DNA of 63,153 nucleotides, the filler included, from Stramenopiles sp. TOSAG23-6 (taxonomy: Eukaryota), in the NCBI GenBank assembly GCA_900128565.1. It is 48 parts of 48 records of this genome, joined end to end, with 100 filler letters (N's around TTAATTAATTAA, not from the genome) between each part and the next. Parts side by side here need not be neighbours in the genome. Positions count along the whole stretch, not along the records: positions 42,326 to 43,536 come from LT639467.1; 47 more parts are not named here. One strand, 5' to 3'. Position numbers and translations under genes: made by a program. Below the pieces are notes generated by a model that saw nothing but the letters and a program-made list of their open reading frames with translations, was not told the origin of the DNA and ran no database searches. Below, in pieces: positions 4,055-60,418 of the stretch; position 1 is the stretch's first letter; each line of letters starts with the position of its first letter.

Positions 4055-5114
4055 AACTACAACACCTCTTACATCTGATGTGCAACGTTGGAGTGCAGAA
4101 TGGAATGAAACTATCCCTAACCCTAATGAAACTACCCCTAACCCTAGTCCTAACTCGACCAATTCTATCCATACAATAATTAATTCTACTTATCAATCAA
4201 TTTGGTGTGCATGTATGTTTTATTTTTTTTTTAAACAAAAAGATCGAAATTTTTTTTTTCTGGTTTTCGTACGAAATTTTGTACCTAACAAATTTTCAAA
4301 ATTGTTTTTCAAATATTTTTTCAAAATACATCTAAAAAAGATACTATCGATGCGTTTAACTATGCTCTATACTGTTGTTCATTAATACAACACAAATCAA
4401 CTGCGAGGACCTCTCTCGAAATTGCTCAATTGTTAGAAAAAAAACTTTTTCTATTTGGAATAATGAATGTTTTATTTTTTTTAAATTTTTTGTTTACATT
4501 TTTTTATAGTAAATTTTGTACCTAACAAATTTTTAAGATTTTTTTTNGAANTTTTTTNCNAAATACATTGATCATCACGAAATCGCATTAAAAATACAAT
4601 GGTGGTGTGTTCTTAAATCGTATAGAATGGTTGGAGATTCAATACGAGCAAGAGAAATTTTCATGTCTCATGTTTTGCCTCGTTTTTCTACATTAAAATT
4701 GTACTCGAATAACCCTAACCCTAAAAACCCTAACCCTAAAAACCCTACAAACCCTAGAAACCCTAGAAACCATAAAAACCCAAATCATTCAAATTCAAAT
4801 TCAAATGTTGCAGGAAACAAAAATAAATTTGAAATTCATGAGAAATGTAGTACAAAATTAGGTACGAAAGAACATTATTCTATCGAAACTTGGTTAAATT
4901 ATCCTCAGGGGGGAAATTTTCAGCAGAGTATTGACCCTAACCCTAGAGGTGAATATAGTAGTGATAGGGTTAGGGTTATGTCTCTGAAGAAAAAAACAGA
5001 TGAAATTATACATTATTCAAATTCAAATCTAGGCAAACAAAAGTTGAAAATTTTAGAAAAATTGTGGCAAGAAATTTTATTATCTGGGCTTGATTCGCAT
5101 ATGACGAAATCAAT
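4055..5114 (+). CDS. Hypothetical protein, 3 internal exons
   Basis: Continuous frame after removing 4213-4331 (GT-AT) and 4465-4568 (GA-AT). Confidence 0.65.
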
Positions 5115-9217: not shown

Positions 9218-9408
9218 NNNNNNNNNNNNNNNNNNNNNNNNNNNNNNNNNNNNNNNNNNNNTTAATTAATTAANNNNNNNNNNNNNNNNNNNNNNNNNNN
9301 NNNNNNNNNNNNNNNNNANTTTTTTTTTTTAAATTTGTTAGGTACAAAATTTTTATAAAAAAAAAAAATCGATTTTTTTTGTAAAAAAAAAAAAAAAATA
9401 AAACATAC

Positions 9409-10546
9409 AAAACTTGCAAAAGTTGATAATGGATTATTCACGACCCAACCAGTGTTGATAGAACGTCGTCCACTAGCACTAGCACTTCGTGTATTTCGTG
9501 TATTTCGTGTATTTCGTGTTTTTCTTCTCCCTCGAATTTGTGTCAAACTATTACTATTATAATGATTAGGGTTAGGGTTAATAGATATTTTCTTCCTCCT
9601 TCTTAATAGTCTAGGTTGACTTTTGCTTCGTCTTTTTCTTCTTATAGAAGTTTGACCATCATGTTTTGCGTGATGTTTCCATTTCGTACTAAATTTTGTA
9701 CCTAACGAATTTCGTATCTTTATATCTTTCATTCTATGTTTAACAATGGTTACTGCATTTCTTTCAGTCTTCCATCTATCTATATGTATTTTGGAAAAAT
9801 ATTTCAAAAAAAAAANTTAAATTTGTTAGGTACAAAATTTCGTACGAAAAAAAAATTAGATTTTTTTGTAAAAAAAAAAAATCTAAAATACATGCCTTTT
9901 TTTTCTTCGTTTGTTTGCTTCCACATGTGCTTTTCTTTCGATTTCTCGCCGTCTTCGATTTGGTCTTACCCTATACTTGAAAAAAATATAGACATTTTGA
10001 AAATTGTTAGATTTCTGGATTTTTAGGTATACACAATTTTTTTTTACAAAAAAAAAAAAAAAAAAAAAAAAATTTAAATTTCATTAGGGTTAGGGTTAGA
10101 TACATATTTTTCATATTCATTGATGTTCCTTTTAATGCCGATGTATTGTGAACAAATGTATTTCGCAAAAAAAACAAAGTCAGATATAGAATTTTCAATG
10201 TTCAATTCATGGTGAAAAAAATTCTAAAAAAAATTCAAAAAAAAAAAAAAAAACTAAATTTAAAATTCATCATTAAAAAATGAAAAAATGAAAAAATGAA
10301 AAAATACAAACTGTCACCTCTTCAATCTCNGAAGCAAATTTCCCACCCAATCTAGCAGCTCCAATTGTACCCTTTGCNCCNAGTCTAGCTGCACCNCGGG
10401 TNGTGTTGAATGCAATTCGTCCTGCTTCNATGTATTTTGGAAAAATATTTCAAAAAAAAAAATCTAAAAAAATTGTTAGGTACAAAATTTCGTATGAAAA
10501 CNAAANAAAAAATNGAAAAAAAGAAAACATACATTGTCCCTTTTGC
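9409..10546 (-). CDS. Arg/Lys-rich hypothetical protein, 5 exons
   Basis: One frame after removing 10430-10532, 10141-10307, 9971-10103 (GT-AG) and 9784-9891. Confidence 0.6.
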
Positions 10547-12026: not shown

Positions 12027-12690
12027 GGACGTTGACTCGAGAAATGTTAACAATCAAAAAAATTACAAAAAACGTCAGTGAAGTGAAATTCACTCCTGCT
12101 GTTATCGAACCATCATTTGGAGTCGGGCGAATTATTCAAGCTATCTTCGAACACAGTTACTATCAACGCGAGGAAGACAAGTCACGAGGTGTCATGAAAT
12201 TTCTCCCTGTTGTTGCCCCTGTCAAATGTGCATTATTTCCTTTATCCGGAGGTGACTCAGGTCCTTTTTCTGAAAGAGTTCAGCAAGTCCGTTCTGAGTT
12301 ATCAATGATGAATGTATCATGCCGAGTTGACGTACGTTTTCGTTTTTTTTTTCGTGTTTTTTTTTCGTAGTAAATTTTGTACCTAACAAAAAGATTTTAC
12401 TAAAAAAATATTTTTTCATAGTACATGCTTCCGCTGCATCAATTGGTAAACGATACGCTCGAAGCGATGAAATTGGTATTCCATTTGGTGTCACTGTCGA
12501 TTTCGAAACAATCAAAGAAGAATCAGAATTGTTTAATACTGTCACTTTAAGAGAAAGAGATTCAACTCATCAAATGCGTATATCAATTGACGAACTCCCA
12601 GAAATAATTGCAAGATTGTCTTCAGGACGTTTGGTTTGGTCTGAGGCATATGCTAAATATCCTAAAGTTGCCGTAAGCGAAGGTAAATAA
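12027..12690 (+). CDS. GARS1: Glycyl-tRNA synthetase (eukaryotic type), last two exons (12027-12331, 12427-12690)
   Basis: VIEPSFGVGRI; anticodon domain RVD|ASAASIGKRYARSDEIGIPFGVTVDF; VTLRERDS. Confidence 0.95.
12332..12426 (+). other. GT...AT intron, 95 nt
   Basis: GAC|GTACGTTTT...CATAGTACAT|GCT; removal restores the VDxSxxSIGxRYAR motif with no added residues. Confidence 0.88.
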
Positions 12691-25352: not shown

Positions 25353-26296
25353 GTTTGGATAGATGAAAAGCAATACCTGATTCCATTGATGAGTCTCCTT
25401 GGTTGTGGACGGAATAAGCAAACCAGTAGAAATCTACATTACCAAAATGAAAATTCAAATCAAACTAATCAGGGAAATAATTACATTACTGTAACATCTG
25501 TACGTTTTTTTTTTTTTTTTTTCGTACGAAATTTTGTACCTAACATTTTTTTGAATTTTTTTCTAAAAATATTTTTTTTTTCGTACGAAATTTTGTACCT
25601 AACATTTTTTTTGAATTTTTTTCTAAAAATATTTTTACAAAATACATGATGGCTCGATTATCGCAAAAGCTACAAAACAATATCTGAAAGGAGAGAGACT
25701 TAATATTGGATGTTATTGGCCCGCAAATGATCTCTTTTTACACACAGGATTTGTGGAACCAATGATGATGAAGTATGATATAATGACTAGTCAAACAGAA
25801 AATATTCAATTACATTCAGAAGTGCAAAGACAAATGATGTACGTTTTATTTTTTTTTCAAATTTATATTTTTTTTCGTACGAAATTTCGTACCTAACAAA
25901 AAAAAAAAAAAAAATTTGAAATATTTTTTTACAAAACATGAATGATTGTGTTAATGTTGAAATAAAATTATCAAATATTGAAAACATTGGAGGAAAAAAA
26001 TATAAGAAAAAAAAACGCCAATTGAAGTCAGTAGGTATTGACTATGTACGTTTTATTTTTTTTATTTTTTAAAAATTGAATTTTTTTTTCGTACGAAATT
26101 TCGTACCTAACAAAAATTAAATTTTTTTTTGAAATATTTTTCCATAATCCATGTACAAGATATATTCTGTCTCTCATCTGCAAGTCGCCCAGGTGGCGTC
26201 GCGGGTCATTCAACACAAGAGCTTTGGTCATTTCTTCGAATATTATATGATCTAAAGGACGAAGATGTCTTTGCGCCTCGGAGTACTCTTGCTCAT
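25353..26296 (+). CDS. SET-domain lysine methyltransferase (Rubisco-LSMT/SETD3-like), 4 exons
   Basis: LIPLM, AKATKQYLKGERLNIG...DLFLHTGFV, NDCVNVEI, ELWSFLRI after removing three GT-AT introns (25500-25647, 25839-25939, 26046-26152). Confidence 0.6.
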
Positions 26297-27918: not shown

Positions 27919-29013
27919 GAAGCATTTACAACACGAATATTAGCTGAATTTGATTTTTTTCTAGACTCTTACGCACACGAAATCGGAGTTTTATTAATTG
28001 AACCTCAATTTGGTTCTATAATAGCTGCCATGCCTTGGGATCCAAAATTACTTTATGAGTATATATGTTTTATTTTTTTTTTCAAATTCCAATTTTTTTT
28101 TTTATAAAAATTTTGTACCTAACTAACAATTTTAGATTTTTTTTTTTTGAAATATTTTTCCAAAATATATATTTACAGAGCACAAGAACGAGGAATTTTC
28201 GTGTGTGCTGATGAAGTGATGTGTGGATTAGGACGTCATGGAAAATTAGACAATTTGTTTTTGAGTGGTTGTACATTTTCATTATGACTATATGAATGTA
28301 AGGTTTTTTTTTTATACAAAATTTTGTACCTAAGAAATTTTAATTTTTTTTTTAAAATCTTTTTTCAAAGTACATGTCTTGATATACCACCAGTCGATGC
28401 TGTAACATTTGGAAAATCAATAGGTAATTTTTTTTTTTTTTAATTTTTTTTTTTAATTTTTTTTTTTTGGTTTTCATACGAAATTTTCATAGAAAACAAT
28501 TTTTTATATTTGGAATATATTTTTATATTGTAGGTGGTGGTGTATTTCCAATATCAGGAGCAATTCTAAGACAAGGTGCCTCAGAACTTGGCTCACATGG
28601 ACAATCTGTTTTGCAATCTCATACATGAATGTTTTACTTTTTTTCAATTTATAATTTATTTTTTTTGAAAATTTTGTACCTAAGAAATTTTTGAATTTTT
28701 TTTTTTAAATATTTTCCAAAAATACATATTGTGGCAGTTCTGAATTGGCTATTTTAGCAGCAACATCAACTCTTACAATGATTAAACAATGGCAACCTCA
28801 TATCCAAAATATATCAAAAATTCTTGAAAATATTTTTAATGATATTTCAAATGAAACAAATGATACAATTCTCATTCATGGTCAAGGTTTGATGTGGGGT
28901 GGAATTTTTCAACATTCTGATAAAGAGTTAAGAAATGAAGCAAAGATGATTTTACAAAAAAAATGTGAAGAACAAGGTGTTTTGCCTTATTTTGTACCAG
29001 TTGGAGGATTCAT
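27919..29013 (+). CDS. Class-III PLP-dependent aminotransferase, 5 exons (27919-28062, 28171-28270, 28376-28423, 28534-28626, 28728-29013)
   Basis: LLIEPQ, ADEVMCGLGRHG, DAVTFGKSIGGG.FP.SG, SHTYCG and GQGLMWG all fall in one frame after splicing. Confidence 0.9.
28063..28170 (+). other. AT...AT intron, 108 nt
   Basis: TAT|ATATGTTTT...AAAATATAT|ATT; family core present; joins LLYEY to IYRAQERG. Confidence 0.7.
28627..28727 (+). other. GA...AT intron, 101 nt
   Basis: ACA T|GAATGTTTT...AAAATACAT|AT TGT restores HTY; a +1 shift gives HTC and a +2 shift gives a stop. Confidence 0.8.
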
Positions 29014-33242: not shown

Positions 33243-34291
33243 ATGGAAAAAAAATATGTTTTGGTCTTTGTCATATCAGTGCAAAAAATGTACCCTTTTT
33301 ACTCTTTTGTAGTAATTTAGTGAGTGCTTTAGCAGCTGGTATGACTGTTAAATTTTTTCCAGTTTTTTTTAAAATTGAAGTCGGACTATCGCCAGTTTGT
33401 TTTCAATTTTGAATTTATTTATTTTTGAATTTTTTTTTTTCGTACGAAATTTTGTACCTAACATTTTTTTTTAAATAATTTTTTTTCACTAGTACAGGTT
33501 TGTGTCATGGCTGTATATGTCATAACGCCTATTTGTATGGCTATTTCAATATATGTGTCAAAAAGTATAGCAATTAACTACGGATTTGGACGTGTAGAGA
33601 CAGTTCAAGTGCAACGGTTTTTGGGTATGTATGTTTTTCAAAAAAAATTTCAAAATTTAAATTTTCAAAATTTTTTTTTAAAATTTTTTCTATATTTTTT
33701 CAAAAAAAAAAAATTTAAATTTTTTTTTTTTTTTAATTTATTTTTTTTTTTTTTTTTTTTTTTGTAGTATCTCTTCACTTCCCCTCCCTATTCTTCCTAT
33801 CCTCATAACAAAGAAAATGAAATTTGGAAAATATATTTTTTTAATACATTTTATTTCTAATTATTTTGGCTATTTTTAAGTCCTTATGGAAGCATAAAAT
33901 TATCTGTGTTTTTGTATACATTTTTCGTACCATTTTTACATCATCTGGATGGCCATTAATCAATTCAGTAATGAATGATTATACAAGAAAAGGAACACGT
34001 GCCAAGTATGTTTTATATATATTTGTATTTTCATACGAAATTTCAAAACGAATCAAAATAATATTGAATTTCAAAACGAAACAAAAAAAAATTTAAAAAA
34101 AATTTAAAAAAAAAAATGTGTGATTTTTTTTTTTTTTTAATTTTTTTTTTTCATACCTAATGATATTTTGTACTAAGCATTTCGAAACTGTACATATTGT
34201 ACCAAAATACATATGGAATTCGTTACAATCTATCGCTGGATTTGGCTGGTCAGGTTCAGCAGCTCTAGGAGGGATTTTAATACACAAATAT
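33243..34291 (+). CDS. Major facilitator superfamily transporter, internal exons
   Basis: LAAGMTVKFFPVFF, GRV, YIFRT...PL..SVMNDY...TRAK|WNSLQSI..FGWSGSAALGG; introns 33395-33497 (AG), 33629-33849 (AT), 34006-34212 (AT). Confidence 0.8.
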
Positions 34292-35763: not shown

Positions 35764-36912
35764 TGAAAACATGCATGGATTATGAAAAAATATTTCAAAA
35801 AAAAAAAACTCAAATTTGTTAGGTACAAAATTTCATACAAAAAAAACAATAAACTCGAAATTGAAAAAAAATAAAACATACAGGGTCGGATTCCCAACCT
35901 CGTGGTGCACTGCTACCCATTTCACTTCTATTGAGTTGTTGATCATAAAGATGTAAAATCATTGTACCTATATTGTGAAAAAGGTTTTTTGTTGGTACAA
36001 AATTTCATAAGAAAAAAATAAATTCGAAATTGAAAAAAAAATTGAAAAAAAAAAACATACCTACTGCAAAGACATCCATTGTGAAAAACTCACGTTTGGT
36101 CAACAATGAACCTTTCGAACTTCGTAACTCTCCATACTTTTCTCCTACACGTGGAAAGTATTATGAAAAAATATTTTAAATTCAATATTTTTGTTAGGTA
36201 CGAAATTTCGTACGGAAAAACCAACTACATTCGAAATTGAAAAACAATACAACATACGTCCTATATGCCACGTCATTTTGTAGATTCTTGACAAGCGTTT
36301 TATTAGTTTCATCCTTCGNNNNNNNNNNNNNNNNNNNCTTTTTCTTACTTCCATAATCAACTAAAGCAACTTTAATTTGACCATACTTTGTAATTTTTGT
36401 CATAATATTTTCAGCCTTTATATCACTGTTTATCCAACCTAAATCATTTAAATCCTTAATTGCCATCATTAATTGTCTAAATTTTTCCTTAAACACAACA
36501 TGAGGAGTATTTTGATTGCTTTTAAATTCTTTCGTATCTCCAAATATATCATCATACTTTTCAAATATTAAGGCATGACACCCCAATCTATTAATTGCAC
36601 CATAAAATTCAGGCATATATTGTGAAAAAATATTTTTTGGTTTTTATTAGGTACGAAATTTACTATAAAAANNNNNNNNNNNNNNNNNNNNNNNNNNNNN
36701 NNNNNNNNNNNNNNNNNNNNNNNNNNNAAAAAAAATAAAACATACATGTAATCCATGTGATAATTGTAATGTTTTGCATCACTTGAGATTTGAGTTATTA
36801 TTGTCTTTTCAATTTCAAAATGCTTTTTGTTTTTGAAAAGCTTGATTGCACGTAATTCACCATCTGCCAGATCTGCATTCTCTGCTGCTGCTAGTTCACG
36901 TACAATATACAC
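35764..36912 (-). CDS. Divergent Ser/Thr protein kinase, 5 exons
   Basis: RAIKLF, NSDIKAENIM, LVDYG, AYRT|P, MDVFAV|GTMILHL; introns 36615-36745, 36156-36257 (GT-TT), 35968-36060 (GT-AG), 35775-35881. Confidence 0.8.
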
Positions 36913-41068: not shown

Positions 41069-41514
41069 GTTTCGTACAAGCAAAGGAATGGGTGTGCGTA
41101 TGAATGGATGTTTGAGTGGTTTTGCACCTGCGATGAATGGTTTACTTGAAAGTTCAATTTTCACTCAGAATATTTGTTCGACAGTTGTTACTCATGTACT
41201 TGTACGTTTTATATGAATTTCTAATTTAATTTTTTTTTTTGGTTTCATACGAAATTTCGTACCTAACGATTTTTTTTTTCCGGTAAAAAATATTTTTTCA
41301 CAATACTTGTACGTTGTTCTTTTTACTTTCAAAAGTTATTTATTTTTATACCTAATACAAAGGTTTTGTACCTAACGTATTTCAAATTTGACATATTTTT
41401 TCACAATACTTGCCCCACGTCCTGGAGAAACAATCATTGATATGTGTGCAGCACCTGGAGGCAAATCAACTCATATTGGCGCACTTATGAAAAACGAAGG
41501 AATTCTTGTTTCAT
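41069..41514 (+). CDS. NSUN6: NSUN6-like tRNA m5C methyltransferase, exons 41069-41201 and 41412-41514
   Basis: GMGVRM...QN..S.VV.HVL|APRPGETIIDMCAAPGGKSTHI. Confidence 0.88.
41202..41411 (+). other. Two abutting GT...TT intron units (41202-41308, 41309-41411) with no exon between them
   Basis: CTT|GTACGTT...CAATACTT|GTACGTT...CAATACTT|GCC; each unit has its own GTACCTAAC and ATAT box. Confidence 0.85.
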
Positions 41515-41615
41515 GTATGTTATTTTTTTTTCAATTTCGAATTTATTTTTTTATAAAAATTTTGTACCTAACAAATTTTTTAGAATTTTTTTTGAAATAT
41601 TTTTTCATCATACAT

Positions 41616-42325: not shown

Positions 42326-42749
42326 AAAAATCGAAAATTGGTCTCAAAAGGTGGTTTTTTGTTTGTTTTCAATTTTTTTTTTTTTTTTTTTTTAGTATGA
42401 AATTTTGTACATAACAAAAAAAAAAATTTAAAATTATACGTAACAAAAAAAACGAATTCAAAATATTTTTTCACGATACATAGAAGATAAATTTGGACAA
42501 GAACAAATTAGCCGATTAAAGAAAGAAGGATTTAAAAGTCATTCAACGTACAAAACGTTTTTACTTCAAATTCCTGATTTAACTCAAGAAGAGCTTAAAA
42601 ACATGTATTGGTACAGTTCTAGTGCAAAACTTTCTGCTGAGGGAAAAAAAAGACAGAGAGAAAAAAAAGGCTTTTTTGAGGTCCCTTTAGTATATCATTA
42701 CTGCGGTCGATCATACAAAACTGATAATCCCTCAAATTTCAAAAAATAA
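42326..42749 (+). CDS. Hypothetical protein, C-terminal exons (intron 42361-42481)
   Basis: Open frame SKGGFL|EDKFGQEQ...NFKK*; missing from the ORF track. Confidence 0.55.
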
Positions 42750-43017
42750 AAAAAATATTAGGTACAAAATTTCGTACGAAAAAAAAAAAAATCAAAAAAA
42801 AAGTCTCTTTAGCGAGTTATTTACATAATACAGTTGTAGAGGATATAACTGATTTTATTATAAATTATAAATCTACTATTTGATATAAATATCGTAGATT
42901 TGAATATAACCAGTATTGACAAGAAGGATGGCACTTCATTCATACTTTCGAAATTGAAATTTTTTTTTGGTATGAAATTTCGTAACTAACAAATTTCGAA
43001 TTTGCTTAGTGTCACTT

Positions 43018-43536
43018 TCAAAAAGACATTTTGCGTGGAGTCTCAGATATACTAGTAATTTCTCTACTTGACACGTCACGTGTGTGGTGCTTTATAGGAG
43101 TATCTGCTATAATACTAATGACTCCTGGATTTCTTGGACTATTCGGTGCATTTTTCATCGGCGTTGAAATCTCTGTGAAAGGATTGAAATTTCTATTAGT
43201 ATTACTGCCTCTACGAGGACGAAATGGCTGTTTTGTTGGAGTATCTTGAATTACAGTCACAGAAGATGAAGTTACTTCCATTGGACGAACATTTTCGTTT
43301 TGTGTGCTTTGGATTTGTATTGGATGTAGTTGTATCTTTTTATGAGTTGATCCTACATGTATTGTAAAAAACAATGTAAAAAACGATTTTTTTCTTAGGT
43401 ACAAAATTCCGTACGAAAAAAAAACTAAATTTAAAATTGAAAACAAAATAAACCATACATGTAAGGATGGCGATTGTGTCCATCTTCGCCTTTTTTTTAA
43501 GGGAGGCGATTTTGTTGCAGACTCTTTTCCGTTGCA
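43018..43536 (-). CDS. TP/SP-rich hypothetical protein, C-terminal exons (intron 43357-43458)
   Basis: VIQDTP, IIADTP and ISETP repeats; frame restored by intron removal. Confidence 0.55.
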   Translation of the reverse strand, partial: CNGKESATKSPPLKKRRRWTQSPSLHVWFILFSILNLVFFSYGILYLRKKSFFTLFFTIHVGSTHKKIQLHPIQIQSTQNENVRPMEVTSSSVTVIQDTPTKQPFRPRRGSNTNRNFNPFTEISTPMKNAPNSPRNPGVISIIADTPIKHHTRDVSSREITSISETPRKMSF

Positions 43537-43636: not shown

Positions 43637-44847
43637 AAAAATCGAAAATTGGTCTCAAAAGGTGGTTTTTTGTTTGTTTTCAATTTTTTTTTTTTTTTTT
43701 TTTTAGTATGAAATTTTGTACATAACAAAAAAAAAAATTTAAAATTATACGTAACAAAAAAAACGAATTCAAAATATTTTTTCACGATACATAGAAGATA
43801 AATTTGGACAAGAACAAATTAGCCGATTAAAGAAAGAAGGATTTAAAAGTCATTCAACGTACAAAACGTTTTTACTTCAAATTCCTGATTTAACTCAAGA
43901 AGAGCTTAAAAACATGTATTGGTACAGTTCTAGTGCAAAACTTTCTGCTGAGGGAAAAAAAAGACAGAGAGAAAAAAAAGGCTTTTTTGAGGTCCCTTTA
44001 GTATATCATTACTGCGGTCGATCATACAAAACTGATAATCCCTCAAATTTCAAAAAATAAAAAAAATATTAGGTACAAAATTTCGTACGAAAAAAAAAAA
44101 AATCAAAAAAAAAGTCTCTTTAGCGAGTTATTTACATAATACAGTTGTAGAGGATATAACTGATTTTATTATAAATTATAAATCTACTATTTGATATAAA
44201 TATCGTAGATTTGAATATAACCAGTATTGACAAGAAGGATGGCACTTCATTCATACTTTCGAAATTGAAATTTTTTTTTGGTATGAAATTTCGTANCTAA
44301 CAAATTTCGAATTTGCTTAGTGTCACTTTCAAAAAGACATTTTGCGTGGAGTCTCAGATATACTAGTAATTTCTCTACTTGACACGTCACGTGTGTGGTG
44401 CTTTATAGGAGTATCTGCTATAATACTAATGACTCCTGGATTTCTTGGACTATTCGGTGCATTTTTCATCGGCGTTGAAATCTCTGTGAAAGGATTGAAA
44501 TTTCTATTAGTATTACTGCCTCTACGAGGACGAAATGGCTGTTTTGTTGGAGTATCTTGAATTACAGTCACAGAAGATGAAGTTACTTCCATTGGACGAA
44601 CATTTTCGTTTTGTGTGCTTTGGATTTGTATTGGATGTAGTTGTATCTTTTTATGAGTTGATCCTACATGTATTGTAAAAAACAATGTAAAAAACGATTT
44701 TTTTCTTAGGTACAAAATTCCGTACGAAAAAAAAACTAAATTTAAAATTGAAAACAAAATAAACCATACATGTAAGGATGGCGATTGTGTCCATCTTCGC
44801 CTTTTTTTTAAGGGAGGCGATTTTGTTGCAGACTCTTTTCCGTTGCA
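43637..44847. repeat. Duplicate of contig 42326-43536 (redundant assembly entry)
   Basis: Same length, same ends and same ORFs; the only difference I saw is one N. Confidence 0.95.
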
Positions 44848-47568: not shown

Positions 47569-48712
47569 TGGTAGATGCCGATAGTATAGAGAGATCAGTG
47601 AATCGGGGTGTGACTATTCTTAAACTTTTGCGAGATATCGCCCAAGAATTTACCACTAAAAAACAAGGGAAAAAGGACCCTAGTATGGTCTTCGCAGACT
47701 TGGGTATGACGGCTTCTGTGCTTTTGTTGGAATTAAAGCGTTGCAACAGGGAAGTATTTGTTGGTCTTCACGAATCAAAGAAGCTTGTTACTGCAAAAAA
47801 GGAATCTCTTGATGCAGCTTTTCTTGGTTTGCAAAATCTTGAATATGAAAAAGCTCATTTACTACGTCAAATTGAACGAAACCAGTCAATTAAGACTGTT
47901 GAAATGGACAAAATAAAACTTGTATCTGAAAAAGAGTACAAAAAGTCGACTGGTGATACTTTAAAACGGCATGGTAATGACCGACATGCATATCAGTTAA
48001 GTCGCTTAGCTCATGAACTATCAACACGACAATCTCAGCATCAAGCTGGCGAGGAGCTTGAATTTAAGCGAGTTGCAATAAGCCGCCAGACTGCGGCGAA
48101 GTCTCAATTTATTAGTGGCCTGCCACGCCATCTCCGACAAATCGAAAAGTCTACTGAACCCCTACAAAAGTACATTAAAATGCCAACATCATTGCGTCGT
48201 AAGAAACATGAACGTGCTAAATCATTGCCTTCGCCTTTATACGTGCTTTACTGTCAATTTGAAGGATATATTGACGCTTTTTCTTCACAACAGTCTGGAA
48301 GCGTCTCTAACATCAGGTACGTTTTCATTTGAATTTCGATTTTTTTTTTTTTGGTAAAAAAATTTTGTACCTAAAGCAAAACAAAATTATTATTTTGTAC
48401 ATATCAGTATACACATTTACGACGAGGAAGAAGAAAACGAAGAAGAGCGAAGACGAAAGTTTCCTTCTAGAAAACGAAAACGGGTCGAGAAGGATATCGG
48501 TGCTAGCAAAACTAATAAAATTGCAGAGAAATCTGTCGTTGTTGAAAATTCTACTATTAAAACAGACCAATTGAATTGTCCTGTTGGACTTGGAATTTAT
48601 CTCAGAATAGAAGTTGAAGATAAAAGCGGTAGACAGGCAGTTGATATTATATTTAGACATTTACCTTTACTTAATGCCGTTACTGCTGAAACACGTGGGC
48701 ATCCTAACGCAT
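47569..48712 (+). CDS. THOC5: THO complex subunit 5, partial (GT-AG intron 48317-48407)
   Basis: LKRCNR, LQNLEYEKAHL, RLAHEL..R, PLQKY, LPSPLYVLY. Confidence 0.88.
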
Positions 48713-59411: not shown

Positions 59412-60418
59412 TCACCTACATGCTTCGCCTAATAAAGGTACTGCTAAAATGGAACAACGAGCAATTCCAGTTAAAAAATTCCATGTCAAGCCTTTTACAC
59501 GAAATCTTAAAAAATCTGCTAATTCTTTATGTACAACATTTTCTATAAAAACGCCATTATTATGGGTAACTTTAATTCTGATGGAACTTTCCTGTAAAAC
59601 AAGTGGATCAATATTTCGTGCGCAACTAGGCGCTTCAATCATTGGTTTACCTATAGCAATATTTGCTGGAGTATTTATCTTTTTTGTGTGAAAATATTTA
59701 AAAAAAAAAAATGTTTTTTGTAAGGTATGAAATTTAAAATTTTTTTAAAAAATTAAAATTTTTTTTTTTTAAATTTAAAATTTAAAAAAAATTTTTTAAA
59801 TTTTTTTTAAATTTTTTTAAAATTTTTTTTTTTAAATTTTTTTAAAACAAAATAAGTAACGTACGTGTAAAACAATGGGTTGCATCAAATGGATTGGAAA
59901 TGAATTTGGTAAAAGATTGACTTTTCGTGCAGCAATAGTTTGATCAATAATTGGATCTGAATAATAGGATGAAGATTGACCAGTGACAGACCTGTTTTGG
60001 AAAAAATAGTACAAATTTTTTTTTAGATTAAAATATTTGTTAGGTACAAGTTTTACTATGAAAAAAAAATTTACGAAAAAAAAAAAAAAAAAGTAAAAAA
60101 AATCATGATACACTTTGGACACGTGGCATTGAAAAACACGAAAAACATACCCACCCAAAACACTTGTACTTCCACTTCGTATTAAAGCTCTACGTATTGC
60201 TTCAGCAGATTTCGTGATTGTTGGTGGTTTTGTATTTGAATTCAAATTAATATTTTTATATTGTTGATGATGTTTCATTCGAGCATGTATTTTGGAAAAA
60301 TATTTCAAATTTTTTTTGTTAGGTACAAAATTTCGTACGAAAAAAAAAATTCAATTTCAAAATTTAAAAAAAAAATAAATTGTACATGTGTGCCATCAAT
60401 GAATTTCATGTTGGGAAC
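59412..60418 (-). CDS. Hypothetical protein, 4 exons including a 33-nt exon (60386-60418)
   Basis: Continuous frame after removing 60285-60385 (AT), 59992-60150 (AG) and 59679-59864 (AG). Confidence 0.6.

Follow-up and report, generated by a model that had tools for sequence, protein, structure and literature searches.

Most introns of a repeated family in Stramenopiles sp. TOSAG23-6 seem to end in AT: is the 3' splice site a copied exon end?

Introduction

At one locus in the genome of Stramenopiles sp. TOSAG23-6 (GenBank assembly GCA_900128565.1), a putative intron, hereafter the target intron, displays the same eight-base palindrome, TACATGTA, at both of its junctions (positions 43354-43361 and 43456-43463 of the 63,153-nucleotide stretch of DNA that was analysed as a whole and is called the window below). 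The original prediction took the two copies for the duplicated target of an insertion, the first supplying the GT of the 5' splice site and the second the AT that had been recognized as the main acceptor. What could produce such a repeat: the insertion of an element that duplicates its target, or the resemblance of two splice signals to each other?

We find that the target intron, judged by its sequence, belongs to a single family of short introns (about 90-150 nt) that is very abundant in this AT-rich marine protist. Most introns of the family seem to end in AT rather than AG, as far as reading frames and homology can tell. Their junction repeats lie far above random sequence, but most of the excess is shared consensus. 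The reading that we favour, with a probability of roughly 0.4, is that a short duplication of variable length is reused as the 3' splice site, which would make the family introner-like. Where junctions are written out below, a slash marks the cut, and positions are counted from it, negative upstream.

Results

An abundant family of short introns

The window consists of 48 contigs of 1203-1232 bases each, sorted by length and joined by linkers of the form N44-TTAATTAATTAA-N44; the G+C content ranges from 0.20 to 0.38, and open frames reach up to 400 codons in the standard code. This DNA occurs in at least 20 sequencing runs of seawater samples, 13 of these being RNA runs. Contig 33 (42326-43536), which holds the target intron, and contig 34 (43637-44847) are identical except for one N at 44296, and the duplicate contig 34 was dropped from all counts. 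The 15-mer AATTTYGTACCTAAC, with at most one mismatch, occurs 57 times in the window, four of these being in contig 34, against 0.03 occurrences expected. Copies are found in unrelated genes, among them those of a synthetase, a methyltransferase and an aminotransferase, along with many other frames, and in this abundance of similar copies serving as introns the family agrees with introners. The same intron type was met in one metagenome contig (L001, 3.2 kb) when metagenomes were scanned; a scan of viral contigs found no family copy.

Altogether 31 complete copies can be aligned over four conserved blocks. The common plan is a GTAYGTTTT start, followed by the TTTYGTACCTAAC branch block and a YAT end. 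In fuller form, the start gives way to T-rich filler, often with CAATTTCGAATTT, then to TTTTTTC GTACGAAATTTTGTACC TAAC, to further filler and to the AAATATTTTTYCAMAATACAT end; both the GTAYGTTTT start and a CCTAAC branch block are present in the alignment, the latter roughly 30-50 nt from the intron end. A conserved hairpin in the near-palindromic core was considered and rejected by eye, as the 5' arm varies without compensation and TTTGTACC is fixed.

Junctions were compared in a core set of 27 introns. Outside this set stand the contig 34 duplicate, a paralogous copy at 1788-1670, the intron at 48317 with its two in-frame acceptors, 41515 as a probable chimeric join, 36257 with an unclear upstream frame, and copies truncated by contig ends or holding runs of N, from which 36745-36615 and 4465-4568 were excepted and kept. 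The first dinucleotide in the core set is GT in 23 of the 27 introns (GA in two, AT and GG in one each), and the last is AT, likewise in 23 (AG in three, TT in one), which bears out the earlier recognition of AT as the main acceptor. Among the features of U2-type introns, the GT start and a CTAAC-type branch are thus present, and the terminal AG is found in just three of the 27, with non-AG ends backed by homology at four junctions.

Where the introns are cut

Could the AT end be an artefact of where the cut is drawn? The boundaries might be misread, and the introns might be of the ordinary GT-AG kind or AT-AC introns with a two-base shift. The public coding sequence (CDS) P0001 of the glycyl-tRNA synthetase gene does use such a GT-AG pair, GT(12336)..AG(12421), and some in-frame GT-AG pair exists within 15 nt in 12 of the 22 introns whose frames are clear. 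The other ten have no such option, and the length anchored on the consensus joins the frames in 20 of the 22, against a chance expectation of one third.

Residue-exact junctions are available in three conserved genes, a glycyl-tRNA synthetase, an NSUN6-like gene and a class-III aminotransferase (intron coordinates in Table 1). Exon 1 of the synthetase ends in ..RVD and exon 2 starts with ASAAS..; in all six homologues the one runs directly into the other with no gap. The GT-AG model of P0001 adds a private insert of three residues (VLH) that is missing from the same six homologues, and its profile score of 226.3 bits is 7.8 bits below the 234.1 bits of the GT..AT model. This suggests that gene models limited to canonical introns mis-annotate this genome.

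The spliced model of the aminotransferase scores 337.2 bits, against 327.3 and 321.8 for canonical alternatives (10-15 bits better), and is gapless at three of its four junctions in 4/4 homologues; one of these three belongs to an ordinary GT-AG intron, and the other two allow no GT. The junction of intron 28063 reads EY/IY and is gapless in 4/4 homologues; that of intron 28627, whose upstream exon ends in ATACAT just as the intron does, reads HT/Y and is equally exact in 4/4. Two exons of this gene found no match among solved structures. Solved human NSUN6 chains locate the junction in the NSUN6-like gene: the exon before it ends at residue 230, and the second residue of the exon after it aligns to residue 232, so that the first one falls on 231; the stretch 41202-41411 would therefore be removed exactly. 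It ends in ..CTT, and AG is absent from its 3' part. The NSUN6 junction and two of the aminotransferase thus leave no room for GT, for AG or for either, and the misreading of boundaries appears very improbable overall.

The AT-AC variant of that explanation fares no better. An AT..AC reading is permitted in the 19 of 27 introns where at least two bases upstream of the cut are shared, and is impossible in the remaining eight, the synthetase intron included. U12-type introns, among which AT-AC ends are known, start with ATATCC and have their branch close to the 3' end. The start here is (AT)GTAYG, with the branch at the spacing given above, and membership in that class was rejected.

Only the consensus-anchored position suits all the validated junctions at once: upstream shifts are incompatible with the synthetase, and downstream ones with aminotransferase intron 28627. 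In 7 of 24 introns, an AG between the branch block and the end is left unused. The cut points would seem to stand at fixed places relative to the internal blocks, not at fixed dinucleotides. Beside these junctions there are three, at 41515-41615, 36156-36257 and ~60385-60400 (minus strand), where the end consistent with the frames would be an AT that precedes the usual ..ACAT end by four bases (..CATCAT/ACAT, ..CATAAT/ACTT and ..CAAAAT/G, respectively), a hint that AT cut points may come in alternative pairs with a spacing of four bases.

How much of the junction repeat exceeds the consensus

Random pairs of positions 89-149 nt apart share 0.81 matched bases on average, and 1.2% of them reach at least 5 and 0.16% at least 8. 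The 27 true junction pairs share a mean of 3.56 bases, against 2.62 when the 3' junctions are shuffled among introns, and none of 20,000 shuffles reached 3.56; repeats of at least five bases occur in nine of the 27 introns against 3.7 expected in shuffles (P 0.0006). This pair-specific excess persists without the target intron and is unchanged when three ambiguous introns are added back in either way.

The junction strings that the original prediction listed at other introns are all present (AT/GTAC at 26046, TAG/GTA at 36060, TAG/GT at 28424, TACTT/G at 41202, ATACAT/ at 28627 and ATCAG/ at 48317), with the caveats that 41202 opens two tandem units and that the second in-frame acceptor of 48317 (ACAT, 9 nt downstream) gives zero repeat. 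Where exon copies had been said to differ synonymously, the bases in question are indeed third codon positions (of GAC at 12331 and of GGT at 28269).

On the exon side, enrichment is confined to positions -3 to -1, just as in the usual exon-side splice consensus. Among 39 strict donors, T occupies -1 in 30, A occupies -2 in 27 and C occupies -3 in 14; the upstream exon ends in AT, the dinucleotide that also ends the intron, at 22 of the 39, against a frequency of 0.097 for AT in the window. At 19 strict acceptors, the first downstream exon base is A in seven and G in six. The match rate at -4 and beyond, and at +1 to +3, is no higher than in cross pairs (of 27, 11 vs 10.0 at -5, 13 vs 12.0 at -4 and 7 vs 6.2 at +3).

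These counts bear directly on the model in which a palindromic TACATGTA-like target is duplicated over 8 bp, giving GT from its first copy and AT from its second. The target intron fits that model perfectly; TAC precedes the last two exon bases in three of the 27 introns (the target, 28627 and 41202), and the palindrome lets both junctions pair in RNA, the end stem having a minimum free energy of -17.6 kcal/mol (z -1.91, with 10 of 200 shuffles equally good). The outer positions -5, -4 and +3 nevertheless match at cross-pair rates, and a repeat of at least 8 bases, reached by one intron in 27, turns up somewhere in 18% of the shuffles. Moreover, when the exon flanks of the target are set against the ends of the 26 other introns, 10 of these also give 8 matches, so the target's eight-base repeat reflects exon flanks that resemble the consensus ends of the family. 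Nor does GT look like a gift of the first copy, as it is contiguous with the intron's own conserved AYGTTTT. The 8-bp model is largely refuted and, to our mind, very improbable; the eight-base TACATGTA at the target is mostly a coincidence of exon flanks with family consensus ends.

What survives of the idea of duplication-derived introns, besides the existence of one repeated family, is the tendency of the intron end to copy the end of its own upstream exon. Among terminal letters of the intron (-3 to +3) that depart from the family majority, 12 of 18 are matched in the exon flank of the same intron, where shuffles give 4.3 (P < 0.00005). When the three AG-ending introns are removed, 7 of 12 are matched (2.8 in shuffles, P 0.004), and when 41202 is removed as well, 6 of 11 (again 2.8 in shuffles, P 0.02). 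TAG goes with TAG twice, CTT with CTT, GG with GG, and an AT-starting intron stands before an AT-starting exon. Exons that end in AT are never followed by an intron with a non-AT end (16/7/0/4, P 0.019), and in three of the four non-AT introns the last three bases of the exon are those of the intron. Since a duplication predicts that the intron end copies the exon end, these letters support one. Complementarity of the two ends was tried as an account and rejected, as AG and TT ends go with exon ends in AG and TT, not CT or AA; the relation is one of identity, so that the copied letters are not accounted for by pairing between the ends in RNA.

The target intron

The 102 bases between the target cut points hold all the family blocks, with a branch-like TAAG in place of the TAAC of most copies. 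As the palindrome reads alike on both strands at the junctions, the assignment to the minus strand relies on the open frame and on the orientation of the core with its branch block (43414 down to 43398, followed by TAAG). Cut pairs shifted anywhere from -5 to +3 yield an identical product. The length of the intron is a multiple of three and the read-through frame stays open, so that frames cannot prove its removal. For the frame itself, a word-indexed search gave 17 candidates of which none scored, and a full scan found homologues in 0 of 1.84 billion representatives. With a frame that has no homologue and runs open through the intron, the removal of the target is argued from family membership.

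Table 1. Introns and junction elements discussed in the text, in window coordinates (slash, cut point; L and R, repeat bases to the left and right of it)
Feature	Position	Strand	Remarks
Family intron, glycyl-tRNA synthetase gene	12332..12426	+	GT..AT; 1-base shift only
Family intron, class-III aminotransferase gene	28063..28170	+	starts ATATG, ends ATATAT; GT or AG impossible within TAT/AT repeat
Degenerate family member, aminotransferase gene	28424..28533	+	GT..AG ends, TAG/GT repeat; junction SI/G exact in 4/4 homologues
Family intron, aminotransferase gene	28627..28727	+	starts GAATG, ends ATACAT; no GT possible
Family intron	33395..33497	+	GT..AG ends; first six bases GTTTGT recur at next exon start
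Family intron	35968..36060	-	GT..AG ends; TAG/GTA repeat
Two tandem family units, NSUN6-like gene	41202..41411 (41202-41308, 41309-41411)	+	predicted to be removed together
Open frame 3' of target intron	43021..43356	-	low complexity; no known relative
Target intron	43357..43458	-	102 nt, first base 43458, last base 43357; starts GTATGGTTT, ends ACAATACAT
Junction copy 1, TACAT/GTA	43456..43463	-	five exon bases and first three intron bases (L 5, R 3)
Junction copy 2, TACAT/GTA	43354..43361	-	last five intron bases and next exon's first three
Conserved core GTACGGAATTTTGTACC, then branch-like TAAG	43391..43414	-	one mismatch to 15-mer AATTTYGTACCTAAC

Other copies and repeats in the window

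Some family introns contain internal tandem duplications: 25500-25647 has two cores 59 nt apart, and the intron at 1670-1788 carries a 23-nt repeat that is missing from the paralogous copy at 1948-2043. Copies outside the context of a sense intron would bear on the mobility of the family. One family-like copy of 75 nt (9659-9740, plus strand) lies antisense to a minus-strand open frame (9319-9816) and is bounded by ..CAT/GTTTT and ..CTAT/GTTT; degenerate copies lie between the convergent frames of contig 33, at ~42757-42771 (minus) and ~42976-42990 (plus).

It is common for contigs to break off within the intron core, as is expected when an assembler meets a repeat. In contig 32 (41014-42225), the exons up to 41514 match NSUN6, those from 41614 resemble an amino-acid antiporter (E 0.012, chain 4dji_A), and the family intron 41515-41615 between the two groups is of a length at which the frames fail to join. 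Going by these matches, contig 32 is a probable assembly chimera through the repeated intron. False joins of this kind would weaken, not create, pair-specific identity.

A different repeat, the telomere-type two-unit motif TTAGGGTTAGGG with at most one mismatch, is found inside the contigs at 18 places on both strands, against 0.09 expected, among them 4115, 4713, 8649, 9566, 10084, 23931, 24825, 55932, 61355 and 61412; some of the 18 are in open frames. Motifs of this type also occur in the metagenome contig L001, at ~2240-2330. A regulatory box and a repeat-derived coding segment are two possibilities for their nature.

Discussion

How might an intron come to end like the exon before it? We propose that each copy of the family would bring its own start signal (GTAYGTTTT), branch block (TTTYGTACCTAAC) and end block (..AAATATTTTTYCAMAATACAT), and that its insertion would duplicate a few bases of the target, usually two or three, of variable number and mostly ..AT. 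The second copy of these bases would become the last bases of the intron and serve as its 3' splice site, so that splicing would remove the element together with one copy and restore the reading frame. In contrast to the original prediction, GT would be supplied by the element and not by the target. The duplication itself could be the work of a transposase or of staggered-break repair. Apart from the copied letters and the frequent AT at the exon end, the tandem pair at 41202-41411 speaks for such a process, as TACTT closes the exon there and also each of the two units, giving three copies in all.

Several observations weigh against this proposal. In the 19 GT..AT introns, the main class, the mean repeat is 3.05 bases against 3.10 in shuffles (P 0.70), so that the pair-specific excess seen across all 27 introns is lacking here; for this class, repeat length is explained by the splice consensus, an outcome that the original prediction had itself named as contrary to duplication. 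The repeat has no fixed length, L ranging from 0 to 6 with L = 0 in five of the 27, and the excess over cross pairs at single positions is small (22 vs 17.8 at -1, 12 vs 8.2 at -3). A decaying duplication should give longer repeats in copies closer to the family consensus, and no such trend is observed (rho -0.05, P 0.82, n 26). The aligned copies are ~70% alike on average (31 copies, 465 pairs), with their conservation focused on blocks which may themselves be splice signals, and their termini show no inverted likeness beyond GTA..TAC plus runs of T and A, letters that double as splice signals. Finally, the sample is small, with ~27 introns on short contigs that break within the intron repeat itself, and at least one contig (contig 32) looks chimeric.

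Much of this is what one would expect if nothing were duplicated and the repeat were the overlap of two splice consensus motifs, with T replacing the last G in both (..CAT/GT....CAT/G). In ordinary eukaryotes, exons end in ..CAG before GT and introns end in ..YAG before G. The likeness of the introns to one another would then stem from a strict and information-rich splicing grammar, and one change in the machinery might explain both ATs, for example if the U1 small nuclear RNA (snRNA) read both sites, as it reportedly does with the exon end and the 3' site in fission yeast. A search of the window for snRNA genes gave no Rfam match. Such a consensus would account for the unexceptional repeat length of the GT..AT class, for exon enrichment at -3 to -1, for the absence of an age trend and for the conservation of start, branch and end blocks with divergent filler between them; AG introns after exons ending in AG are also expected from the ordinary consensus. 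It fails to predict the letters copied outside the AG introns (CTT with CTT, ATA.. with AT.., GG with GG), and to make exon and intron ends alike it has to invoke either two unusual changes or a single link that is unproven. Furthermore, the CAATTTCGAATTT block is present in only a subset of copies, and variants at the 5' and 3' ends, ~90 nt apart, are linked (6/0 vs 4/9, P 0.011, for a comparison chosen post hoc after viewing the alignment), features that look like descent rather than constraint. We consider a consensus without duplication possible, and it stands close behind the duplication that we favour.

Combined with the evidence on cut points, a short variable duplication leads to a wider picture, which we offer tentatively: a stramenopile that would routinely splice introns ending in YAT, with cuts set by internal blocks, nearly all of them derived from one mobile family whose 3' site is copied from the exon end. 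If confirmed by RNA, this would be an independent stramenopile case of a spliceosome accepting a non-AG 3' end on most of its introns. Unlike in the euglenid, Amoebophrya and Fritillaria cases discussed below, the 5' and branch signals would be textbook ones, isolating the 3' site as the one relaxed signal, and the family would provide a compact system for studying the conversion of a duplicated exon end into a splice site. Gene models built on the GT-AG rule would be systematically wrong for this lineage, and gene counts, apparent pseudogenes and protein sets of such genomes may be distorted, a concern raised by P0001 and its three residues found in no homologue. Introner surveys that take annotated introns as their input and drop those with unfamiliar splice sites, as described in sections of PMC12130899, would miss families of this kind.

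How does the family compare with known systems? The conventional 'protosplice' pattern, ..MAG/GT....YAG/G.., has an exon end that resembles the intron end and a next exon that tends to start like the intron; the family is alike in both respects and differs in having T for the last G on both sides. In the literature searched, which did not extend to the supplements of PMC5778133, no description of this intron type was found. The available text of that paper, on single-cell genomes of uncultured stramenopiles, uses the word 'intron' twice and never about splice sites, and the type is not described in the consulted portions of PMC12130899, PMC12621601 and PMC11282704.

The nonconventional introns of euglenids and some diplonemids also carry short direct repeats that blur the exact border, and their ends can pair (parts of PMC12621601 and PMC11282704). 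They have no U1-type start or conserved branch block and rely on pairing of the ends, which in diplonemids are G/C-rich inverted repeats. The start and branch of the family are conserved and the end stem of the target has a z of only -1.91, and a euglenid type was rejected. Amoebophrya, according to passages of PMC11282704, has repeated introns with variable junction duplications of 3-5 nt, highly variable borders and apparently no U1 snRNA. It is likewise a marine protist with repeated introns and variable junction duplications; the family differs from its introns in keeping a conserved U1-type 5' signal.

The likeness to Fritillaria borealis concerns the 3' end. Most of its non-canonical introns are preceded by an exonic TAC, to which the origin of the 3' site is ascribed, AG-AT is among the commonest borders, and an origin from small transposons has been proposed, with a spliceosome that tolerates odd ends (passages of PMC11282704). 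Both systems have AT among their last dinucleotides (Fritillaria also AC) and, on our proposal, an exon end tied to the 3' site. The Fritillaria introns start with AG and are highly diverse, whereas the family has a yeast-like GTAYGT start, a strong CTAAC block and a single consensus.

The mechanism that we propose has a counterpart in the introners of Micromonas pusilla (IE1), thousands of similar short introns in unrelated genes, in which the element supplies the 5' site, a 3-nt target duplication supplies the 3' site, and the element is spliced out together with one duplicate copy (as set out in the relevant part of PMC11282704). The family shares with them the many similar short introns and, on our proposal, the element-borne 5' site and a 3' site from a short duplication. 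With respect to the duplication of set length that marks introners, 8 bp is not what we find, and a copy of 2-3 nt of the exon end is compatible with the data, without a fixed length or an excess in the main class. Micromonas IE1 has an AG 3' site, a fixed duplication length and adjoining terminal inverted repeats, whereas the family has a mostly AT end, a shared piece of 0-6 bases without fixed length, and minimal inverted likeness.
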